Source of the DNA: Streptosporangiales bacterium
GTDB taxonomy: Bacteria; Actinomycetota; Actinomycetes; Streptosporangiales; WHST01
Direction: 5' to 3'
Assembly (NCBI GenBank): GCA_050698355.1
Contig: JBOHBN010000006.1
Coordinates: 13,277 to 77,276 of the forward strand
DNA: 64,000 nucleotides
Shown: positions 847-60,979 of the stretch, piece by piece
How the letters are laid out: the number at the start of each line of letters is the position of its first letter
Position numbering within the stretch: the first letter of the stretch is position 1
Notes under the pieces: model-generated
Seen by the model: the letters and a program-made list of their open reading frames with translations, nothing else
The model's database searches: none
Told to the model about the DNA's origin: nothing
Translations under genes and position numbers: made by a program

Positions 847-2034
847 ATGACGACCGAGCAGCACCACCTACCCGACAGCGGTAGCGGCGCCGAGGCAATC
901 GTCGGCGCCGAGTCGGGTGTCGGTGACCGCTTGGTGACGGCGCTGGCCGGCGTGGCAAAAGAGCTGTGCCGACCCGGTAATCAGGACGAGACTCTCGCGG
1001 CGATCGTCGCCGCCGCGATCAACACCGTGCCGGGTGCGGAACAGGCCGGTGTGTCGCTGGTACACCGTGACGGCGCGATCACCTCCCACCACCCGTCCAG
1101 CGAGACCATCGCGACTGTCGACCAGCTGCAATCCACCTACGCCGAGGGCCCGTGCGTGACTGCACTGCGCGAGGAACACATGGTGGTCGTCGACGATCTG
1201 GCCGTCGAGGCCTCCCGGTGGCCACGGTTCGCTCCCGAAGCGGTCTCGCACGGGGTGGCGAGCATGCTGTCGTTCCAGCTGTTCGCCGCCGCGGATACCC
1301 GCGGCGCGCTGAACCTGTACTCGAGCCAGCCCAAGGCGTTCGCCGAGGAGTCGCATTTGGTCGGGGAGTTGTTCGCCTCGCACGCCGCGGTCGCGCTCGC
1401 CGGGGCGCGGCACGCCGGCCAGCTCGAACAGGCCCTGTCCAGCAGGGACGTGATCGGGCAGGCCAAGGGCATCTTGATGGAACGATTCGGTGTCGACGCC
1501 GACGGCGCGTTCACCATGCTGGTGTCGAGCTCCCAGAACACCGACATCAAGGTCGTCGACGTCGCGCGCTGGCTGGCCACCACTGTCGGGGAGAACAGGC
1601 CTGGTCAACACGGTCACGACCGCGATGCGGTCCCGACCAGGCGGGCAGGCGCGGAACAGGTCGAGGCGACGCAACGCACCCACGGCAGCAACGGCCTTGT
1701 CCGCATCGAGCCGCTGGCCGATGATCGTGCCGGACTGCGGCTAACCGGCGAGATCGACCTGTCCAACCGGGAGCAGCTCACCGCCGCGTTGGCGGGTCTG
1801 ACCGCAGCCACCAGCGGACATCAGCAGGTACACCTTGAACTCGCCGGCTTGGACTTCATCGACGTGGCTGGAACCCGAGTCCTGCTCGCCACCGCCGAGC
1901 AGCTGCACGAACACGGCGGACGGCTGATCCTGAATCACCCGTCCCCGGTACTGAGCCGGGTCCTCGCGCTGCTGGTGTCGGACGCCGGTCTCGCCGCCAG
2001 CGAAAACGGGTCCGTGACGCTGCCGTACCACTAA
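847..2034 (+). CDS. GAF + ANTAR + C-terminal STAS fusion regulator
   Basis: GAF core (TYAEGPCVTALRE). ANTAR motif (SRDVIGQAKGILMERFGVDADGAFTMLVSSSQNTDIKVVDVARWL). C-terminal STAS-like block (LRLTGEIDLSNREQL...VHLELAGLDFIDVAGTRVLL). Confidence 0.85.
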   Translation: MTTEQHHLPDSGSGAEAIVGAESGVGDRLVTALAGVAKELCRPGNQDETLAAIVAAAINTVPGAEQAGVSLVHRDGAITSHHPSSETIATVDQLQSTYAEGPCVTALREEHMVVVDDLAVEASRWPRFAPEAVSHGVASMLSFQLFAAADTRGALNLYSSQPKAFAEESHLVGELFASHAAVALAGARHAGQLEQALSSRDVIGQAKGILMERFGVDADGAFTMLVSSSQNTDIKVVDVARWLATTVGENRPGQHGHDRDAVPTRRAGAEQVEATQRTHGSNGLVRIEPLADDRAGLRLTGEIDLSNREQLTAALAGLTAATSGHQQVHLELAGLDFIDVAGTRVLLATAEQLHEHGGRLILNHPSPVLSRVLALLVSDAGLAASENGSVTLPYH

Positions 2035-12500: not shown

Positions 12501-14138
12501 TCAATGGCCGAAGGCCTCTTGCAACCACCAGGCGCCGTGCTCCGAGGTGACCTTCGCGTCGACGAGAAGCGGCTTGTCCCGCGTGCCCGCTACCCATGTA
12601 CGGACGGCGTCGAGGTCCGGCCGGTGGCGCACCGTGGCGGCGTCGAAGCCGTAACCGCGGCCGATCGAGGCGAGGTCGGTGTCGGGGAACCGGACCGCCG
12701 ACAGGTCGTACCCGTCGGGTGCGAAGTGGTGCACCTCGGCGCCGTAGGCCGCGTCGTTGTAGGCCACTACGACCATCGGCAGGCCGAGCCGGCTGACGGT
12801 CTCCAGCTCCGCCGCGGCCATCAGCAGGCCACCGTCGCCGAGGGCCGCTACCGGCAGCCGCTCGGGCTGTGCCAGGGCCGCGCCGATCGCGGTGGCCAGT
12901 CCCAGGCCCACGGACTGGAACGCTTGGCTGAAGCAGAACCCGTTCTCGTCCGGTACGGACAGGAACATGCTCGGGTAGCCCATGAAGTTCCCCGAGTCGA
13001 CCGCGACCACCCGGTCGGCCGGCAGCAGGTCGTCGAGCCCGATGCTGAGCGTCCGCGGGTCGATGCGGTCAGCGGTGCTCGTGTCGTCGTACGCGGCGTC
13101 GCGCCAGCGGACCCCGTGCGCGATGCGCTCCCGCAGGGCGTCACTGTGGTAGCCAGCCGCGGAGATGCCGTCGGACGCGAGAGCCTGGGACGCGGCGCGT
13201 GCGGTCTCGCGTACACCGCCGTTGACCCCGACCTGGATGTCGCGATGCGCGCCGAGCGCGGTCGGGTCGACGTCGACCTGGGCGACGGTCGCTTCGGGGG
13301 CGATCAGGCGCCCGTGCCGCATCGTCCACATGTTCAACGCGCAGCCCCACCCGACGATCAGGTCGGCGTCACGGATGAGCTCGGCGGCCAGCGGGGATGC
13401 GAAGCCGCCGGAGACATCCAGTGACCAGGGGCTGTCATGGAAGAGGCCTTTGGCGACCGCGCTGGTGGCGAGCAGGGCGCCGCAGGTCTCGGCCAGCTCG
13501 TACAGCGCCGCCTTGCTGTCCGGCCCTCGTGCGCCGCGGCCGGCGACGAAGACCGGCCGCTCAGCCCGACGCAGCGCGTGTACGAGTCCGGCGAGCCCCT
13601 CCTGGTCGGGCTCCGTGGGTGCGCGATCCGGCCGATCGGGTGGCTCGAGCGCCGGTGCCTGCTCGGACTGTACGGGCAGCGGCAGGTTGAGCACGACGGT
13701 ACGGGGACCGTCGAGTGCGGTGTAGTAGGCGGCGGCCGCGGTCTGCACCGCATCGGCGGCTGTAGTGACCCGCATGGGTACGGCCCCTACGGCGGCGGCG
13801 AGCGCCTCCTGATCGACGTAGAAGTTCGACCTGCGGTCGGTCGCCTCCGGAGCCAGCACGACTACCGGGGTCCGGCTCTTCGCCGCCTCGGTGATTCCCG
13901 TCATCGCGTTGGTGAGCCCGCATCCCTGGTGGATCGAGACCGCGGCGACTCGCCCGCTCATCCGCGCGTAGGAGTCGGCCATCGTTGCCGCACCGTTCTC
14001 GTGCCGGGCAGCGACGAACCGTGCTCCACCTTGCACCAACGCATTGGTCACGTGGAAGTTGCCGGAGCCGACCAGACCGAAGACATGGTCGACGCCCAGC
14101 TGCGCGAGGCTCCGGCCGACGGCGGTCGCGACATCCAC
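12501..14138 (-). CDS. Thiamine-diphosphate-dependent enzyme (acetolactate synthase / benzoylformate decarboxylase superfamily)
   Basis: HVFGLVGSGNFHV...ARHENGAATMADSYARMSG...GCGLTNAMTGITEA, and C-terminal GDGGLLM TPP-binding motif. Confidence 0.9.
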   Translation of the reverse strand: MDVATAVGRSLAQLGVDHVFGLVGSGNFHVTNALVQGGARFVAARHENGAATMADSYARMSGRVAAVSIHQGCGLTNAMTGITEAAKSRTPVVVLAPEATDRRSNFYVDQEALAAAVGAVPMRVTTAADAVQTAAAAYYTALDGPRTVVLNLPLPVQSEQAPALEPPDRPDRAPTEPDQEGLAGLVHALRRAERPVFVAGRGARGPDSKAALYELAETCGALLATSAVAKGLFHDSPWSLDVSGGFASPLAAELIRDADLIVGWGCALNMWTMRHGRLIAPEATVAQVDVDPTALGAHRDIQVGVNGGVRETARAASQALASDGISAAGYHSDALRERIAHGVRWRDAAYDDTSTADRIDPRTLSIGLDDLLPADRVVAVDSGNFMGYPSMFLSVPDENGFCFSQAFQSVGLGLATAIGAALAQPERLPVAALGDGGLLMAAAELETVSRLGLPMVVVAYNDAAYGAEVHHFAPDGYDLSAVRFPDTDLASIGRGYGFDAATVRHRPDLDAVRTWVAGTRDKPLLVDAKVTSEHGAWWLQEAFGH

Positions 14139-54956: not shown

Positions 54957-55775
54957 TCAGTTGAGCGCGAGTGCGGCGTCCGGCTCGAGTACGCGGAACG
55001 TGAAGCTCTCCTCAAAGTAGAGTTGCACCGCGTCGCTGTCGTGGTGGCTGTAGCCGACGGAGATGTCCTGGCCGACGTCGAGCAGGAAGTCGCCGCCCCT
55101 CTCGCTGACCACCACGGCGCCGTCCACGCCGGGAGCCCACAGGATGCTGCCGCCGACGACCTGCTTGAGATGGTCGAAGAGCAGGTGGCCGCCGTGCTCG
55201 GCGGTCTGGATGATCCTGGTGTACCCGGCCGGGCCGATGGCGAGCGCGTACGGCCCGACGATGCCGTTGCACCGCAGCTGGTCGACGGCGCGGGCCACCA
55301 CACCGGGGTACGCGTCGCAGTCGTCGCCGAGCGTGCCCGACCCGTACGGTGAGGCCTGCGCGATGCCGGTGATGCCCGCGGCCGCCCAGCCGTGGAACAC
55401 CGTACGGTTCTCGACCTCGGCGACCTTGCCGGCGGCGCGGGCGAGGTCGTCGAAGTCCGGGTCGCTCGCACCGCGCTGCAGCTCGTCGATCTCCTGCCTG
55501 CTCACTGTGAACGGCACCGTGTACTCGGCGAGCGGCAGCACGCGGCGCTGCTTGGCGGTCACCCCGTCCGTGCTGATGCCCGGCGGGCCGTCGAGCGCGG
55601 TGGTGCGCCCGAGCGACACCGACGACTGCTGCCAGCCGCTGGGGCCCTTCCAGTCGGCCAGCTTGCGGGCGGCGAGCAGCGGTGTGAGCCGTTCGCGTGC
55701 CTCGTCGTCGATCGCTTGCCACGCCACTGTCGGGATGGGCGCGAGGCCACGAAGAAGGTGGTCGCCGGCACTCAC
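54957..55775 (-). CDS. Family 1 encapsulin nanocompartment shell protein (linocin M18 / Cfp29 type)
   Basis: 272 aa, GTG start. Colinear with the M. tuberculosis Cfp29-type sequence from memory (LAPIPTVAWQAIDDEA..., VPFTVSRQEIDELQRGASDPDFDDL, GPYALAIGPAGYT, WAPGVDGAVVVSERGGDFLLDVGQDISVGYSHHDSDAVQLYFEESFTF). Confidence 0.9.
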   Translation of the reverse strand: MSAGDHLLRGLAPIPTVAWQAIDDEARERLTPLLAARKLADWKGPSGWQQSSVSLGRTTALDGPPGISTDGVTAKQRRVLPLAEYTVPFTVSRQEIDELQRGASDPDFDDLARAAGKVAEVENRTVFHGWAAAGITGIAQASPYGSGTLGDDCDAYPGVVARAVDQLRCNGIVGPYALAIGPAGYTRIIQTAEHGGHLLFDHLKQVVGGSILWAPGVDGAVVVSERGGDFLLDVGQDISVGYSHHDSDAVQLYFEESFTFRVLEPDAALALN

Positions 55776-55782
55776 TTGCGCT

Positions 55783-56361
55783 TCACCGCCTTTTCAGGCT
55801 GCCGATGCCGAGCGAGGTGTCCTCGCCTCCGCCGGCGGCCGGGTTGATCTCGGCTTCGACCTCCCGAACGTACTCCTGCGGGGGCTTGTCGGAGGTGTCG
55901 ACCCCGCGGGCGCCCTTGTGGGCCTCGAGGAACTCCGCGAAGTGCTTGCCGAGCGACTCCCGTAGGCCGATGGGCGCGTTCAGGCGGAAGTCCGCGAGCC
56001 CCTCGCGCTCCTCCTCGGCCATGTGGTCGTCGTTGGCCACCCGCGCCCGCCCGACGGCCTGCCACCACTCGTCGCTGCCGACCGGGTGCCGGTCCGCATC
56101 GTGCGCGCCGTCACGGATGTCGTTGTGGTCGTCGATGGCGTCGAGGGTTTCCTCCTCGGGGTCCTCGCCGCGCTTGAGCAGCTGCGGGTAGAAGATCTCC
56201 TCCTCGGCGACGGCGTGCAGGTCCAGATGCGCGGACAAGGGGTCCCACACCGTGCGCAACGCGTCGGCATCGGCGTTGCGCGCCTGCAGCTCGTCCAGCG
56301 CTGCGAACTGCTCGCGGAACCATTCGTGGTCGTCGAGGATCAGCTGGGTGATGTCGGCCAT
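55783..56361 (-). CDS. Hemerythrin-domain encapsulin cargo protein with C-terminal targeting peptide
   Basis: HHE-type motifs (ILDDHEWFREQF, HAVAEEEIFYPQL, DDHNDIRD, HMAEEEREGL). Flexible G-rich linker, then ...EDTSLGIGSLKRR at the C-terminus. Stops 7 nt before the encapsulin start. Confidence 0.85.
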   Translation of the reverse strand: MADITQLILDDHEWFREQFAALDELQARNADADALRTVWDPLSAHLDLHAVAEEEIFYPQLLKRGEDPEEETLDAIDDHNDIRDGAHDADRHPVGSDEWWQAVGRARVANDDHMAEEEREGLADFRLNAPIGLRESLGKHFAEFLEAHKGARGVDTSDKPPQEYVREVEAEINPAAGGGEDTSLGIGSLKRR

Positions 56362-56367
56362 AGACCC

Positions 56368-56760
56368 TCACGCTATGCCGTACGGGCTGGGACGGCCAGT
56401 TCGGCGGTCAGCGACTGGGGGCAGTGTGAGGATGTCGTCAGCATCGAGGTCGAGGTGGTCGAGCAGCAGCCCCGCGACGCGGCGTAGGGAGTACGGCGGG
56501 TGGTGCAGCGCGAGCCTGGCGCCGCTCGCTTCGTACACCGCATTCGCGGTACGTATCAGTGCCTCGGTGCCGGCCAGGTCGATGAACTCGAGCTCGGCCA
56601 GCTCGAGATGGATGAGCCCCTTGGTGTCGCAGTGCTGACCGGTCACCTTGTCGAGCACGCTGGTGAGCCCCTTACGGCTGGCGAGATCCACCTCGCCAGC
56701 GAGCCGCCAGCCCGGACGACTGTCGGTGAGCGTTTCTGCGGTGAACAGCTGCCCGGTCAC
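56368..56760 (-). CDS. STAS-domain protein (anti-sigma-factor-antagonist fold)
   Basis: WRLAGEVDLASRKGL...IHLELAELEFIDLAGTEALIRTAN, paralogous to the STAS tail of the 847-2034 gene. GTG start with AAGGAAG RBS. Ends 6 nt before the hemerythrin start. Confidence 0.75.
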   Translation of the reverse strand: MTGQLFTAETLTDSRPGWRLAGEVDLASRKGLTSVLDKVTGQHCDTKGLIHLELAELEFIDLAGTEALIRTANAVYEASGARLALHHPPYSLRRVAGLLLDHLDLDADDILTLPPVADRRTGRPSPYGIA

Positions 56761-56956
56761 ATCGCTTCCTTGCCGTTGTCGCTCGGTGACCCGCGCCGAT
56801 CGCACGCGGCAGTGCGCAGTCGCGTTGGGCAGGCCGTCTCGGCTGGACGGCTCAACCGGAGACTCAACGATAGTGAGGCCGGTCAGCACGGGAAAGCCAG
56901 GAAGCGAAGCTCGGTCCCCCGAAACCAGACCAGCAAACGAAACACCGAGTTGGTGC

Positions 56957-57805
56957 TCAGCCGGCACCAGGCAGGCACACCAGTACTCGCCCGCCCTCCA
57001 CGCGGACGTCGAAGGCGGGTTGTGGGGCGGTCGCCGGTCCGCGCACCACCGCGCCGTCGTCCAGCCGGAAGCGGCTGCCGTGCCAGGGGCAGGTGACGCA
57101 CCCGTCGCTGAACTCCCCCTGGTGCAGGGGTCCGGAGAAATGGCTGCAGCGGTCGGAGAGCACCCACACCTGCCCGTCCTGGCGCAGGGCGAGTACGGCT
57201 GCGGTGTCCAGCAGCAGGCGGCGGGGCTGCCCCTCGGGCAGGTCGTCGATGCCGCACAGCTCCTGCCAGCCCGGTGCCACCAGGTGCGGGAACTCCTCCG
57301 CGTGGTTGGCCCCCGTCGCCTGCCGTTGGGACAGGTGGCCGCCGAGGAAACCTCCGAGAGTGGCGACGGCGAGTCCTGCGTAACCAAGGGCCTTGCCTCC
57401 CCGGTTGCGTCGGCGGGCGACGAGCGCGGCGGAGTACAGCGATACCGCGACGACGTTCGCCGCGGCGTGTACGACCCCGACGCGCTGCTGCTGCTCGTGG
57501 CTCTCGCTGAGGTCTGCTGCACCCGCGAGCACGGCCGGTAGCGTCGCCGCGACACCGACCCCGAGCAGCACCTCGGTCTCGCGGTGCGGTCCCGGAAGCA
57601 GGTCGATGATCGCCGTCCCGATGAACGCGCCGAGTGGCAGCTGAACCGCGGGTGGGTGTACCGGGTGTCCGAGCCACACTCCGTGCAGGGCGTCGCGTAC
57701 CGCGCCGGGTGGGAGAACGCGCTGTGTGGCCTTACGGACCGGATCGGCAACACGGTCGAGCACCGTCGCGTGTTCGAGGCGTGCTACCAGGGCACTGAGA
57801 CTCAC
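56957..57805 (-). CDS. Membrane DUF2231-like domain fused to a C-terminal Rieske [2Fe-2S] domain
   Basis: GTG start with AGGAGG 5 nt upstream. 4 TM helices (HGVWLGHPVHP... motif). Rieske CSHFSGPL...CPWHGSRF. Confidence 0.8.
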   Translation of the reverse strand: MSLSALVARLEHATVLDRVADPVRKATQRVLPPGAVRDALHGVWLGHPVHPPAVQLPLGAFIGTAIIDLLPGPHRETEVLLGVGVAATLPAVLAGAADLSESHEQQQRVGVVHAAANVVAVSLYSAALVARRRNRGGKALGYAGLAVATLGGFLGGHLSQRQATGANHAEEFPHLVAPGWQELCGIDDLPEGQPRRLLLDTAAVLALRQDGQVWVLSDRCSHFSGPLHQGEFSDGCVTCPWHGSRFRLDDGAVVRGPATAPQPAFDVRVEGGRVLVCLPGAG

Positions 57806-57925: not shown

Positions 57926-58996
57926 ATGGTCACCGATGTGGCGCAGCACGGCCCGGATCGGCGTACGCGCGACGGCACGCTGCCGCAGCGCCTGCTCGGG
58001 TGGGGCGCGGAACGCGACCTCAGCGGGCTGGACGATCCGGAGCTGTGCAAGATCGCGAGTCGTGACCTGTCGGCCGAGGGCCTGCTCGGACTCCCGTACC
58101 CGGCGGGCGGGAACACGCCGGCGCGGCTCGCGGCGTTGCGTACGCTGGGCCGCCTCGACCTGACGCTCGGCCGGTTGGCGGAGGCGCACACCGACGCCGC
58201 GGCGATCCTGGCCGAGCTCGGTGGTGACCCGCCGGCTCGCGGCACTCTGTGGGGAGTGTGGGCTGCCGACCCGCCGCACCAGCGGCTGGGCGCCCGCCAC
58301 GACGCGTCGGGCTGGCGGCTCGACGGGGTGAAGCCGTGGTGCAGCGGCGCCGCGGCGTGCACACACGGCGTGGTGTCGGCGCACGCCGACGACGGCTACC
58401 GGTTGTTCGTCGTCGACACGGCCGACCCGAGCGTGCGGCCGGTCGAGGGCACCTGGCCGGCGTACGCGATGCCCGGCAGTGACAGCCGCAGCCTGCGTTT
58501 CGACGGCGCACCCGCCGCTGTTCTGGGCGGTCCCGGTGCCTACCTCGACCGGCCGGGCTTCTGGTACGGCGCGATCGGCGTCGCCGCCGTGTGGTTGGGC
58601 GGTGCCGAGGGCGTGGCGGACGCCCTGCACGGCGCCCACGCCCGCCGGCCGCTGCACGAGCACGCCCTCGCTCACGCGGGAGCAGTTGATGCCGCGCTCC
58701 ATGCCGCGCGGGTCGTCGTCGAACGCGCCGGTGCCGAGATCGACGCCGACCCGAAGGATGCGGACGGGCAAGCATGCGTGCGCGCTCTGCGTACCCGTGC
58801 GGTCGTCGAGTCCGCCGCGACCGACACCGTGGAACGGGTCGGCCGGGCGTTGGGTGCCGCCCCGCTCGCCCTCGACCGCGCCCACGGCCGCCGGGTCGCC
58901 GACCTCGCCCTGTACCTGCGGCAGAGCCATGCCGAGCGAGACCTCGCCGACCTGGGGGAGCGTGTCCTGCCCACGGCGGAGGAGAGCGTCCAGTGA
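57926..58996 (+). CDS. Acyl-CoA dehydrogenase-fold protein (short form)
   Basis: GWRLDGVKPWCSGAAACTH..., ACAD middle and C-terminal domain layout. Function unknown. Confidence 0.65.
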   Translation: MVTDVAQHGPDRRTRDGTLPQRLLGWGAERDLSGLDDPELCKIASRDLSAEGLLGLPYPAGGNTPARLAALRTLGRLDLTLGRLAEAHTDAAAILAELGGDPPARGTLWGVWAADPPHQRLGARHDASGWRLDGVKPWCSGAAACTHGVVSAHADDGYRLFVVDTADPSVRPVEGTWPAYAMPGSDSRSLRFDGAPAAVLGGPGAYLDRPGFWYGAIGVAAVWLGGAEGVADALHGAHARRPLHEHALAHAGAVDAALHAARVVVERAGAEIDADPKDADGQACVRALRTRAVVESAATDTVERVGRALGAAPLALDRAHGRRVADLALYLRQSHAERDLADLGERVLPTAEESVQ

Positions 58997-59781
58997 GCCG
59001 GGTGATCGCGGGTTCGGGCACACCCGAGCAGGAGTGGCGGCCCTGGCTGGCGAGCCGTCGATGGCCCGTGCTCGACGTGGACGCGCTGGCGCGAGCAGGT
59101 CGGGTCGTGGTGCTGGCCGCGCATCCAGACGACGAGGTCCTCGGCGTCGGCGGGCTGTTGCGGATACTCGCCGACCGTGGCGTACCGCTCGCCGTGGTCT
59201 GGGCCACGGACGGCGAGGCGTCGCATCCCGACTCGACGGCGATCACGGCGGACGCGCTGCGCGAGCTACGGCGCGGCGAGGCGGTGCGAGCGCTGACGGC
59301 ACTCGGCGTGCAGGTACGCGAATCCACGCGCCTGTGCCTCCCCGATTCCGGTGTGGCCGCGTGTACGGCTGATCTGGTCGACGGCATCACTCGCGCATCC
59401 GGGCTCGACGAGCCAGGTACGGTGCTGATCGCTCCGTGGCGGTACGACGGGCATCCCGACCACGAGGCCTGCGGCCATGCCGCAAGCGACCTCGCCGCGG
59501 CGGCGGGCGCGGCCCTGATCGAATATCCCATCTGGGGTTGGCACTGGGCGGCGCCCGGCGATGGGCGGGTGCCGTGGCGGAGTGCCCGGCGAGTGCTGTT
59601 GCCCGCCACGGTCGCCGCGGCGAAGGAACATGCGATCGCGGAGTTCCGGACCCAGACGGTTCCGCTCGGTGACCAGCCGGCGGACGCGCCCGTCCTGCCA
59701 TCGGACGTCGTGACTCGGTTCACCCGGGGGGAGGAGGTCGTGTTCACGTGCGAGCAGAAGAGCGGGAACGCGAACCGGTGA
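58993..59781 (+). CDS. PIG-L-family deacetylase
   Basis: GTGA overlap with the upstream stop. VVVLAAHPDDEVLGVGG...DGHPDHEA zinc-site motifs. Confidence 0.85.
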   Translation: MSRVIAGSGTPEQEWRPWLASRRWPVLDVDALARAGRVVVLAAHPDDEVLGVGGLLRILADRGVPLAVVWATDGEASHPDSTAITADALRELRRGEAVRALTALGVQVRESTRLCLPDSGVAACTADLVDGITRASGLDEPGTVLIAPWRYDGHPDHEACGHAASDLAAAAGAALIEYPIWGWHWAAPGDGRVPWRSARRVLLPATVAAAKEHAIAEFRTQTVPLGDQPADAPVLPSDVVTRFTRGEEVVFTCEQKSGNANR

Positions 59782-60386
59782 GCGTGCTGGATGCGTACTT
59801 CGACCATCTCTACGCCGACTCGGACGACCCGTGGGGCATCGAGACGCGGTGGTACGAGCAGCGCAAGCGCGCGCTCACCCTGGCGTCCCTTCCCGAGGCG
59901 CGTTTCCGCAGCGCGTTCGAGCCAGGGTGCTCGACCGGGGTGTTGACCCGTGCGCTGGCGGAACGTTGCGACCGGCTGCTTGCTACCGACATCGCCGGCC
60001 GCCCGCTCCATCTCGCCCGCAAGCGACTGTCGGGCTGTTCGCAGGTGCGCGTCGAGCGGATGGCCGTGCCGTACGAGTGGCCGGAGGGCGAGCGCTTCGA
60101 CCTGATCGTGCTCAGCGAACTCGGCTACTACCTCGACCGCGACGCGGTCGTACGACTGATGAAGCTGACCGCGGAGAGCCTCGATCCCGGCGGCACTGTC
60201 GTGGCTTGCCACTGGCGGCATCCGGTAGAGGGCTACCCGCTACGGGGTGACGAGGTGCACGACGTTCTGGCCGCCGCCCGTGGACTCGCCCGGCTCGCTC
60301 GCCACGAGGAGGACGACTTCCTGCTCGACGTGATGACGCCGGCACCGGCTACATCGGTGGCCCGGCGGACGGGGGTGGTCGGTTGA
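59778..60386 (+). CDS. Class I SAM methyltransferase (NodS-like)
   Basis: GTGA overlap. DPWGIETRWYEQRKRAL...AFEPGCSTGVLTRALAERC. The ORF is also open from 59748. Confidence 0.8.
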   Translation: MSVLDAYFDHLYADSDDPWGIETRWYEQRKRALTLASLPEARFRSAFEPGCSTGVLTRALAERCDRLLATDIAGRPLHLARKRLSGCSQVRVERMAVPYEWPEGERFDLIVLSELGYYLDRDAVVRLMKLTAESLDPGGTVVACHWRHPVEGYPLRGDEVHDVLAAARGLARLARHEEDDFLLDVMTPAPATSVARRTGVVG

Positions 60387-60979
60387 CATCCGCGGTCGGC
60401 GTCGTGGTGCCTGCCCACGATGAGGAAGAGCTGCTGCCCAGGTGTCTCGCCGCATTGCGGAAGGCGACCGCCAACCTCGCCGCACGCCCCGCACCGCCGC
60501 GCGTGCACGTGGTCGTCGTCCTGGCCCGGGCGGTCGGGATGCGACACCTGCTCGACCTGGAGGCGGAGCTGGTGCCGGAGCGGCTGTGGCTGGCGACGAC
60601 CGATGCCGACTCGGCGGTCCCGCCGCACTGGCTGACCCGGCAGGTGGACCTGGCCGCGTGCGGTGCCGACGCGGTCGTCGGAACCGTGGACGTCCATCCC
60701 GAGGATGGGGCCGACCGGCATCTGGTACGGCGGTGGGCGTCGCGCTACATGGTCGGCAACCCGCATCCCCACGCGCACGGTGCCAACCTGGGCGTCACCG
60801 CGGCCAGGTACCTCGCGGTCGGCGGTTTCCCACCGCTGCCGAGCGGGGAGGACGTCGCCTTCGTCACCGCGCTGGGGCAACGGGGAGTCGCGCGCGAGCG
60901 AGACCTGGCGGTCAGGACGAGCCCGCGCCGCCACAGCCGCGCCCCGTCCGGGTTCGCCGGCACCCTCGCCGCGATCTGA
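60383..60979 (+). CDS. GT2-like glycosyltransferase (short; possible internal deletion)
   Basis: TTGA overlap. VVVPAHDEEELLPRCL...WLATTDADSAVPPHWL...HAHGANLGV...GGFPPLPSGEDVAFV. Confidence 0.7.
   Translation: MTSAVGVVVPAHDEEELLPRCLAALRKATANLAARPAPPRVHVVVVLARAVGMRHLLDLEAELVPERLWLATTDADSAVPPHWLTRQVDLAACGADAVVGTVDVHPEDGADRHLVRRWASRYMVGNPHPHAHGANLGVTAARYLAVGGFPPLPSGEDVAFVTALGQRGVARERDLAVRTSPRRHSRAPSGFAGTLAAI

Follow-up and report, generated by a model that had tools for sequence, protein, structure and literature searches.

A stretch of 64,000 nucleotides from a Streptosporangiales metagenome-assembled genome (MAG), positions 13,277 to 77,276 of contig JBOHBN010000006.1 (hereafter the window), encodes a hemerythrin-cargo encapsulin system whose two core genes are directly preceded by a gene for a single-domain STAS protein. 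This gene order is kept in three related lineages with the STAS gene under purifying selection, and metagenomic proteins exist in which a STAS domain and a hemerythrin domain are fused in the same order. The coupling of the STAS gene to the hemerythrin–encapsulin (Hr-Enc) pair is real, lineage-restricted and previously undescribed, and the fusions lend it indirect support. Encapsulin operons are usually described as consisting of cargo and shell genes, at times with a secondary cargo, and to our knowledge none of them has been linked to a regulatory or signalling protein. The explanation that we prefer, and hold with about as much belief as doubt, is that the STAS protein acts as a partner of the hemerythrin, by regulation or binding, and that its own promoter region drives the expression of both.

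The STAS–hemerythrin–encapsulin unit

The unit lies on the minus strand, so that its first gene has the highest coordinates:

54957-55775 (-): encapsulin shell gene, family 1, 272 aa (PF04454, 1.4e-77; NF041155 encap_f1, 6.8e-84)
55783-56361 (-): hemerythrin cargo gene, 192 aa (PF01814, 3.3e-10)
55786-55815 (-): C-terminal cargo-loading (targeting) peptide SLGIGSLKRR behind a Gly-rich linker, read directly from the sequence
56368-56760 (-): single-domain STAS gene, first in the conserved unit, 130 aa (STAS_2, 5.2e-7)
56761-56956 (-): non-coding leader of 196 nt, from the stop of an upstream Rieske gene to the STAS start
56817-56869 (-): conserved non-coding block of ~55 nt within the leader, from alignment and blastn
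56841-56857 (-): cis-element GGTTGAGCCGTCCAGCC, of the form GGTTGAG-N5-CAGCC, common to genes of this STAS family

The four genes of the preliminary description, these three and the Rieske gene discussed further below, were all confirmed at their positions on the minus strand. Profile searches for encapsulin, hemerythrin, STAS, Rieske and DUF2231 domains all returned matches, the one to STAS_2 being marginal (30.2 bits, with the cut-off at 29.2).

The core of the unit is an ordinary hemerythrin-cargo family-1 encapsulin system, a known class. The shell protein, correctly taken for a family-1 encapsulin at the outset, scores 281 bits against NF041155 ('family 1 encapsulin shell protein'; cut-off 100). 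It is 83-88% identical to its counterparts in the two metagenomic lineages that share the STAS gene (L001 and L008 in our numbering of loci) and 56-75% identical to those of other full-length Hr-Enc loci. The hemerythrin gene directly upstream ends 7 nt before the encapsulin start, and its product has the C-terminus ...GGGEDTSLGIGSLKRR, in which the targeting-peptide tail is read as ...PAAGGGEDTSLGIGSLKRR. The proposed C-terminal cargo peptide is thus present, and it is also conserved: SLGIGSLK is kept in nearly all of 23 aligned hemerythrin homologues and in most loci of the genome scan. In the same alignment H12, H49/E53, H79 and H113/E117 are invariant, and we read these residues as the diiron ligands of an H...HxxxE...H...HxxxE set. 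The hemerythrin has 3690 homologues at E<1e-5 and is 60-82% identical to hundreds of them.

A precedent for such a core comes from Streptomyces sp. AA4, for whose homologue Giessen & Silver (10.1101/085266) showed loading that depends on the targeting peptide, as well as protection by this hemerythrin encapsulin against H2O2 and NO. The window shares with AA4-type systems a T=1-class family-1 shell gene directly behind the gene for a hemerythrin of ~190 aa, the C-terminal ...SLGIGSLK peptide and an actinobacterial host, in agreement with the earlier remark that hemerythrin is a reported cargo class of actinobacterial encapsulins. By analogy, the window shell would assemble and package the diiron hemerythrin through its SLGIGSLK peptide. 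The difference lies in the operon: the described core has two genes, whereas the window has a conserved three-gene unit led by STAS.

The STAS gene starts with GTG behind AAGGAAG. Its stop lies within the sequence GTGAGGG, 6 nt before the hemerythrin ATG, and this sequence may double as the Shine-Dalgarno sequence of the hemerythrin gene. An AlphaFold2 model of the STAS protein, although of low confidence (pLDDT 63.6), has the element order beta-beta-alpha-beta-alpha-beta-alpha-beta. When the model was compared with the PDB by Foldseek, nearly all of the top ~30 matches were STAS proteins, RsfB, TM1442, RsbV, SpoIIAA and MlaB among them, with TM-scores of ~0.5-0.65. At the level of this predicted structure, a STAS alpha/beta fold is supported for the 130-aa protein.

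Three lineages carry the STAS-Hr-Enc order, namely the window, L008 and L001-L007, the latter two known from metagenomes. In L008 the gene order is Rieske-STAS-Hr-Enc; in L001-L007 a sulfatase gene is followed, after 300 nt, by STAS-Hr-Enc. The STAS orthologues occupy the same position within the unit and are 78% (L008) and 72% (L001-L007) identical to the window protein. Synonymous divergence (dS) among the three lineages is ~0.25-0.6, and the ratio of nonsynonymous to synonymous divergence (dN/dS) is 0.31-0.42 for STAS, 0.05-0.10 for the hemerythrin, 0.15-0.25 for the encapsulin and 0.10 for the Rieske protein. With a dN/dS of 0.31-0.42, STAS is a real gene under selection, yet the least constrained of the block. 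The claim that it is tightly coupled to the cargo and shell genes therefore stands, supported by an order kept in three lineages and by purifying selection. In L008, despite the loss of the C-terminal tail of the STAS protein, ~35 nt before the hemerythrin ATG are still conserved, and we read them as the ribosome-binding region of the hemerythrin gene.

The STAS TGA stop and the hemerythrin ATG of the window stand in one frame, two codons apart (56359-56370 (-)), and read-through of this stop would give a STAS–hemerythrin fusion like the natural protein P0167 described below. In L001, where the gap is 5 nt, and in L008, where it is 47 nt, the two are not in frame, and the match in the window is probably a coincidence.

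The region upstream of STAS is conserved as well. The leader block is kept in L008, and in L001 despite the different upstream gene there. Block and element stay with the STAS gene both where its upstream neighbour is a Rieske gene, as in the window and L008, and where it is a sulfatase gene, as in L001. The window has a single copy of the element GGTTGAG-N5-CAGCC. Across the 176 loci searched, its exact form was found only upstream of STAS-family genes: in L001-L008 (for example, L001:1404-1420 and L008:2021-2037) and before a STAS paralogue in L096 (L096:1756-1772). Variants of the element lie before the gene of a fusion protein in L183 and before STAS paralogues in L009, L010 and L091. Because the conserved block and element accompany STAS genes, the STAS-Hr-Enc unit carries an upstream region of its own, to the exclusion of the Rieske gene. 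The element, which may be a promoter, an operator or part of a 5'-UTR, often has a second GT[TG]GA[GAC] copy 10-12 nt upstream, which gives it the look of a direct repeat. A scan of the leader for sigma-70-type consensus promoters found none, a search of 54-59 kb against Rfam (E<=1) gave no relevant match, neither an ANTAR target nor a riboswitch, and the leader folds no better than its shuffles (z = -0.25).

The presence of a STAS gene inside a cargo–shell operon had been put forward as new, and this has held up. The literature searched makes no mention of STAS proteins together with encapsulins, and no STAS appears among the hemerythrin entries in the available part of the neighbourhood tables of Andreas & Giessen (PMC8346489).

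STAS–hemerythrin fusions and the possible role of the STAS protein

Among the best 150 matches to the STAS profile, two proteins, P0167 (319 aa) and P0177 (357 aa), are fusions of a STAS_2 domain and a hemerythrin domain. Both come from metagenomes of the Joint Genome Institute, where they are annotated as 'STAS domain/Hemerythrin HHE cation binding domain'. The two halves of P0167 correspond to the two window proteins: the STAS part aligns with the window STAS over 113 aa at 35% identity (E 2e-11), and the hemerythrin part aligns with the window cargo at 34% identity over 156 aa, which covers the whole domain (E 6e-18). The alignment is colinear, the domain order being the same as the gene order in the window. 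Both fusions have the STAS subtype of the window, with its FID[LV] and HHPP motifs. The hemerythrin part of P0167 shares the motifs AEEEI[FC]YP and WWxAV with the window cargo and scores 78 bits against a profile of cargo hemerythrins, as opposed to 36.6 bits against the generic PF01814; by these sequence measures it clearly falls within the cargo subfamily. Unlike the window proteins, the fusions are single polypeptides and lack a targeting peptide, and the only fusion context seen, L183, has no encapsulin gene downstream. There the gene of P0167 occupies L183:171-1130, and its ATG is preceded, at a distance of 18 nt, by a variant of the cis-element with GGTTGAA. The fusions are the strongest argument for physical joint action, suggesting that a STAS protein and a cargo-type hemerythrin may work in contact with each other.

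We propose that in a narrow clade of soil actinobacteria STAS became the first gene of the Hr-Enc unit, bringing its own conserved upstream cis-element. Transcription of the hemerythrin and encapsulin genes would most likely start at the STAS promoter, with translation following closely from gene to gene across gaps of 6 and 7 nt. The STAS protein, which cannot be phosphorylated at the canonical position and is derived from, or related to, the C-terminal domain of GAF-ANTAR-STAS proteins, would most likely be a protein–protein partner of the hemerythrin itself, as in the same-order fusions. By binding hemerythrin that is not encapsulated, or by reading out the state of the hemerythrin, it would couple the system to a regulatory partner. 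Co-transcription, STAS–hemerythrin binding and a regulatory role are what we infer here from gene order, conservation and fusions. The locus offers a concrete and cheap test case, with a STAS gene kept before Hr-Enc, natural fusions and an element common to the STAS paralogues. A test at this locus would bear on regulation of cargo loading or expression at the protein level and on what the hemerythrin cargo senses. Should STAS be a mere passenger, the locus would simply add to a known class.

A number of observations weigh against the STAS protein being a partner of the hemerythrin. We surveyed 166 further hemerythrin loci (1.33 Mb; one genome per species plus metagenomes), 61 of them with an adjacent encapsulin gene. 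In none of these 61 other loci does a STAS gene lie directly upstream of Hr-Enc, nor does any of the 61 contain a STAS of the window type, and the closest outgroup hemerythrins (79-82% identical; L177-L182) are likewise without STAS. The neighbourhood survey thus upholds the STAS adjacency for the three related lineages and not as a general feature of Hr-Enc loci. Since STAS is absent from the surveyed loci and from the nearest outgroups, its insertion is best seen as one event in one narrow clade; for the same reason, the encapsulin system evidently works without it. The STAS gene is also evolving differently from its neighbours. Its dN is 3-6 times faster than that of the hemerythrin, the GC content at its third codon positions (GC3) is 0.81 compared with 0.92-0.93 for the hemerythrin and encapsulin genes, and in L008 its product is without the C-terminal tail, all of which would fit a loosely constrained add-on. 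The same metagenome samples also contain paralogues of the STAS protein (53-58% identical), whose genes have unrelated neighbours: Meth_synt_2 in one case, Lsr2 and sulfotransferase genes on either side in another. As for the fusions, both are singleton metagenomic sequences, and P0177 has the architecture of P0167 with a degenerate hemerythrin domain (27 bits against the cargo profile). A fusion is in addition weaker evidence when, as with STAS and hemerythrin, the signalling domains involved are promiscuous. Finally, a promoter for Hr-Enc inside the STAS gene is possible.

The same observations could be accommodated by neutral juxtaposition or promoter capture, whereby a somewhat mobile STAS paralogue landed with its promoter before Hr-Enc and shares only transcription with it. 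Such an event would be in keeping with the highly variable gene upstream of the hemerythrin, which among Hr-Enc loci may be PEBP/YbhB, DUF1990, EamA, baeRF or none, with the fact that the hemerythrin itself does not adjoin an encapsulin gene in 105 of the 166 loci, and with the paralogues that have the same cis-element in unrelated contexts. It would also explain the relaxed dN/dS and lower GC3 of STAS. Nor is the density of STAS genes near hemerythrin loci (6 in 1.33 Mb, ~4.5 per Mb) clearly enriched: it is about the actinobacterial background by a rough estimate of our own, and we dropped the idea of a general STAS enrichment around these loci. What chance landing does not readily explain is that the order was kept across three lineages, at a dS of ~0.4-0.6, under purifying selection on STAS, that the two halves of P0167 match both subfamilies in the same order, and that a STAS gene is present independently in a Mycobacteriales MAG (L016), as part of a run Hr-Enc-DUF6328-STAS on one strand. 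All things considered, we regard juxtaposition as a serious but rather unlikely alternative to a regulatory or binding partner.

A more ambitious version of the partner reading would make the STAS protein and the cargo-type hemerythrin a sensor–output pair wired to the encapsulin, with encapsulation of the hemerythrin, or co-encapsulation of the STAS protein along with it, controlled by O2, NO or redox state or reporting it to a GAF-ANTAR or sigma pathway. If true, no earlier encapsulin would match this one in having a signalling component built in, and the membrane Rieske protein might service it; we consider this reading improbable.

Relatives of the STAS protein and partner switching

Relatives of the STAS protein are few: 5 were found by a first indexed search and 17 by a profile search. 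When 1.84 billion representatives were searched exhaustively with HMMER, 5 clusters reached E<=1e-30 and 578 reached E<=1e-3. Judging by these matches, the window protein is a member of a tiny, lineage-specific paralogue family. The next-best matches outside the family are the C-terminal STAS domains of GAF-ANTAR-STAS proteins, an architecture (GAF-ANTAR-STAS_2) listed in PMC12591593. The window itself encodes such a protein of 395 aa at 847-2034 (+). Its STAS domain is 44% identical to the operon protein over 112 aa, the whole domain, and has the same terminal TLP motif; the operon protein consists of the STAS domain alone, whereas the larger protein also has a GAF sensor and an RNA-binding ANTAR domain. 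The GGTTGAG cis-element was not found upstream of the gene at 847-2034.

The preliminary description had called the STAS module partner-switching-type. In a classical scheme of this kind the protein would sequester a distant RsbW-like factor, and the stress sigma factor set free would drive GGTTGAG promoters, its own included, in a positive feedback. The operon protein does resemble the antagonists SpoIIAA, RsbV and RsfA/RsfB in its STAS fold of ~110 residues, and the anti-sigma antagonists RsfB, RsbV and SpoIIAA are its closest solved structures. An element common to the paralogues would suggest a regulon, and the M. tuberculosis antagonist RsfA is said, in work attributed to Beaucher and co-workers in 2002, to be redox-controlled and not phosphorylated. 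Set against this likeness is the phosphorylation site itself. The SpoIIAA motif FMDSSG, with the phosphorylated Ser58 (FMDS58SG), aligns to FIDLAG in the window protein, which places Leu62 at the phospho-Ser site, and Leu occupies this position, within FIDL(A/D)G, in all five closest family members aligned, the window STAS and its four closest homologues. The cognate partner genes are also missing from the vicinity: the 10 flanking genes (48.6-61 kb, ~6 kb around) include no RsbW-type kinase, PP2C or sigma factor gene, and no HATPase-type anti-sigma kinase, PP2C or sigma gene was found in the further parts of the window scanned (0.1-12.4 kb and 61-64 kb). In sequence, the operon protein is nearer to the STAS domains of RNA-binding GAF-ANTAR regulators than to sigma-factor modules, and its cis-element resembles no recognised promoter type, the sigma-70 scan having come up empty. 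Because of the Leu at the phospho-site, the lack of kinase, phosphatase and sigma genes nearby and the GAF-ANTAR-STAS relatives, the partner-switching label is not supported as it was given, and we think such a mechanism very unlikely.

The STAS protein of L016 is likewise without the phospho-Ser. We considered it as an orthologue of the window STAS and do not claim orthology: the identity is 27%, and its 32 bits against the hidden Markov model of the STAS family would, in our judgement, be inconspicuous in a global search. MsmHr (MSMEG_2415), a mycobacterial hemerythrin-like modulator of SigF, was examined as a precedent and set aside, its motifs placing it in a different hemerythrin-like family and leaving a loose analogy.

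The Rieske gene and the wider neighbourhood

Upstream of the leader lie two further features:

56944-56961 (-): weak terminator-like hairpin with a T-rich tail, across the Rieske stop and ending just past it, from a pattern scan
56957-57805 (-): gene for a fusion of a DUF2231 membrane domain and a Rieske 2Fe-2S domain, 282 aa (PF00355, 8e-17; PF09990, 6e-9)

The Rieske protein has the cluster ligands (CSH-x16-CPWH, of the CxH...CxxH pattern), and its gene has the features noted at the outset, an AGGAGG ribosome-binding site, here 6 nt before the GTG start, and a distance of 196 nt to the STAS gene. As had also been noted, neither the STAS nor the Rieske C-terminus resembles a targeting peptide. 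The gene is found in the same place in L008, where its product is 93% identical. The L001 lineage is without it, as are 58 of the 61 surveyed Hr-Enc loci. More distant orthologues occur in other arrangements. In L181/L182, whose hemerythrin is 79% identical to that of the window, a 50%-identical orthologue heads an ACAD-like/GT2/PIG-L/NodS operon divergent from Hr-Enc, and there is no STAS. In L016 (hemerythrin 69% identical) a 46%-identical orthologue is convergent, ~0.75 kb beyond Hr-Enc-DUF6328-STAS. Since the hemerythrins of the carrier loci (68-79% identical) are among those closest to the window protein, inherited synteny explains much of this recurrence.

The 196-nt gap and the hairpin argue for a separate Rieske transcript; the hairpin is a consensus match only, and its GTTTCGTTT tail is conserved in L008. 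The Rieske gene is probably transcribed on its own and, as a neighbour outside the conserved unit, is recurrent but dispensable. Given the gap, the hairpin and its absence in L001, its membership in the encapsulin operon is not supported; as it does recur beside Hr-Enc in L181/L182 and L016, in other orientations, some link between the two may exist. Directly before the last predicted transmembrane helix of the Rieske protein there is an RRRNRGGK motif (residues 129-136; 57397-57420 (-)). It resembles the internal twin-arginine signals that export the Rieske domain of actinobacterial QcrA, and by analogy the Rieske domain of the window protein may be exported, facing away from the cytoplasmic encapsulin. 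A literature search on DUF2231 returned no functional information.

An iron–sulfur redox protein gene beside a family-1 cargo–shell pair has a counterpart in the IMEF encapsulin operons of Firmicutes, which have a ferredoxin as secondary cargo (PMC8346489). That ferredoxin is soluble, is targeted by an N-terminal motif and is recovered with the shell on purification, whereas the window Rieske protein is membrane-anchored and without a targeting motif, and its gene is 196 nt away and not conserved. An extended compartment, in which the STAS protein would ride along as co-cargo or loading factor by holding on to the hemerythrin while the membrane Rieske protein re-reduces met-hemerythrin through the shell pores, could invoke the physical STAS–hemerythrin contact for which the fusions argue, the IMEF precedent and DUF2231-Rieske genes beside Hr-Enc in three orientations (window, L008, L181/L182 and L016), but with two proteins that lack targeting peptides, a Rieske gene missing from L001 and most surveyed loci and otherwise confined to close relatives sharing an ACAD-like/PIG-L/methyltransferase/GT2 cluster, and a Rieske domain that may lie outside the cell, it is the least probable of the explanations considered.

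On one flank of the four-gene block lies a convergent SDR gene, the end of an epimerase/GT2/DUF2064/SDR run. On the other is a divergent cluster for an ACAD-like protein, a PIG-L deacetylase, a NodS-type methyltransferase and a GT2 glycosyltransferase (57926-60979 (+)). The same cluster stands beside Hr-Enc in L181:308-3487 (-)/L182 and in L020:7439-10316 (-), in differing orientations; in L020 the four-gene cluster is without a Rieske gene. On the short contig of L008 the ACAD-like gene (L008:2-955 (-)) has the same position as in the window.

The survey also bears on hemerythrin encapsulins in general. Each of two scans confirmed >480 relatives of the cargo hemerythrin, compared with the 45 hemerythrin encapsulin systems catalogued by Andreas & Giessen in 2021 (PMC8346489). 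Many of the 105 hemerythrin genes that do not adjoin an encapsulin gene belong to Mycobacterium, Mycolicibacterium and Rhodococcus (L038-L090 and L109-L176; for example, L038:6001-6567 and L072:6001-6567). The C-terminus SL[GR]IGSLKG was present in almost all of the 80 genome-scan loci read, unlinked ones included, and from their sequences the unlinked hemerythrins look like cargo for a shell encoded elsewhere in the genome. The survey thus shows targeting-peptide hemerythrins to be much more widely distributed than the 45 systems of that catalogue, and much more often without linkage to the shell gene.

The most frequent conserved neighbour of Hr-Enc is a PEBP/YbhB-family gene (PF01161, ~177 aa), seen in ~22 loci in all. 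In about a dozen of them, mostly from Pseudonocardia, it lies directly upstream and co-directional with gaps of 37-62 nt; in the remainder it is within a few kb. Examples are L019:1485-2015, L022:5418-5957, L025:5409-5942, L026:5405-5938, L058:5430-5963, L111:3390-3917 and L149:578-1102. We found no discussion of this neighbour in the available parts of the encapsulin literature.

Within ~2 kb of cargo-type hemerythrins there are DUF6328 genes at L016:7403-7924, L030:5300-5554, L040:8402-8659 and L127:4343-4573. The one in L016 starts 12 nt past the encapsulin stop, and the four loci are otherwise different. Two Hr-Enc loci may be decayed, through pseudogene formation or assembly frameshifts: in L025:6583-7017 the encapsulin match is in three short pieces and the hemerythrin open reading frame has no targeting peptide, and in L030:6001-6933 the encapsulin match is in two short pieces and the hemerythrin open reading frame, of 310 aa, again has none. 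In L177:1298-2870 and L178:741-2313 the hemerythrin, the closest of the outgroup, is 82% identical to that of the window and has an intact targeting peptide, and an alpha/beta-hydrolase gene 35 nt later takes the place of the encapsulin gene.

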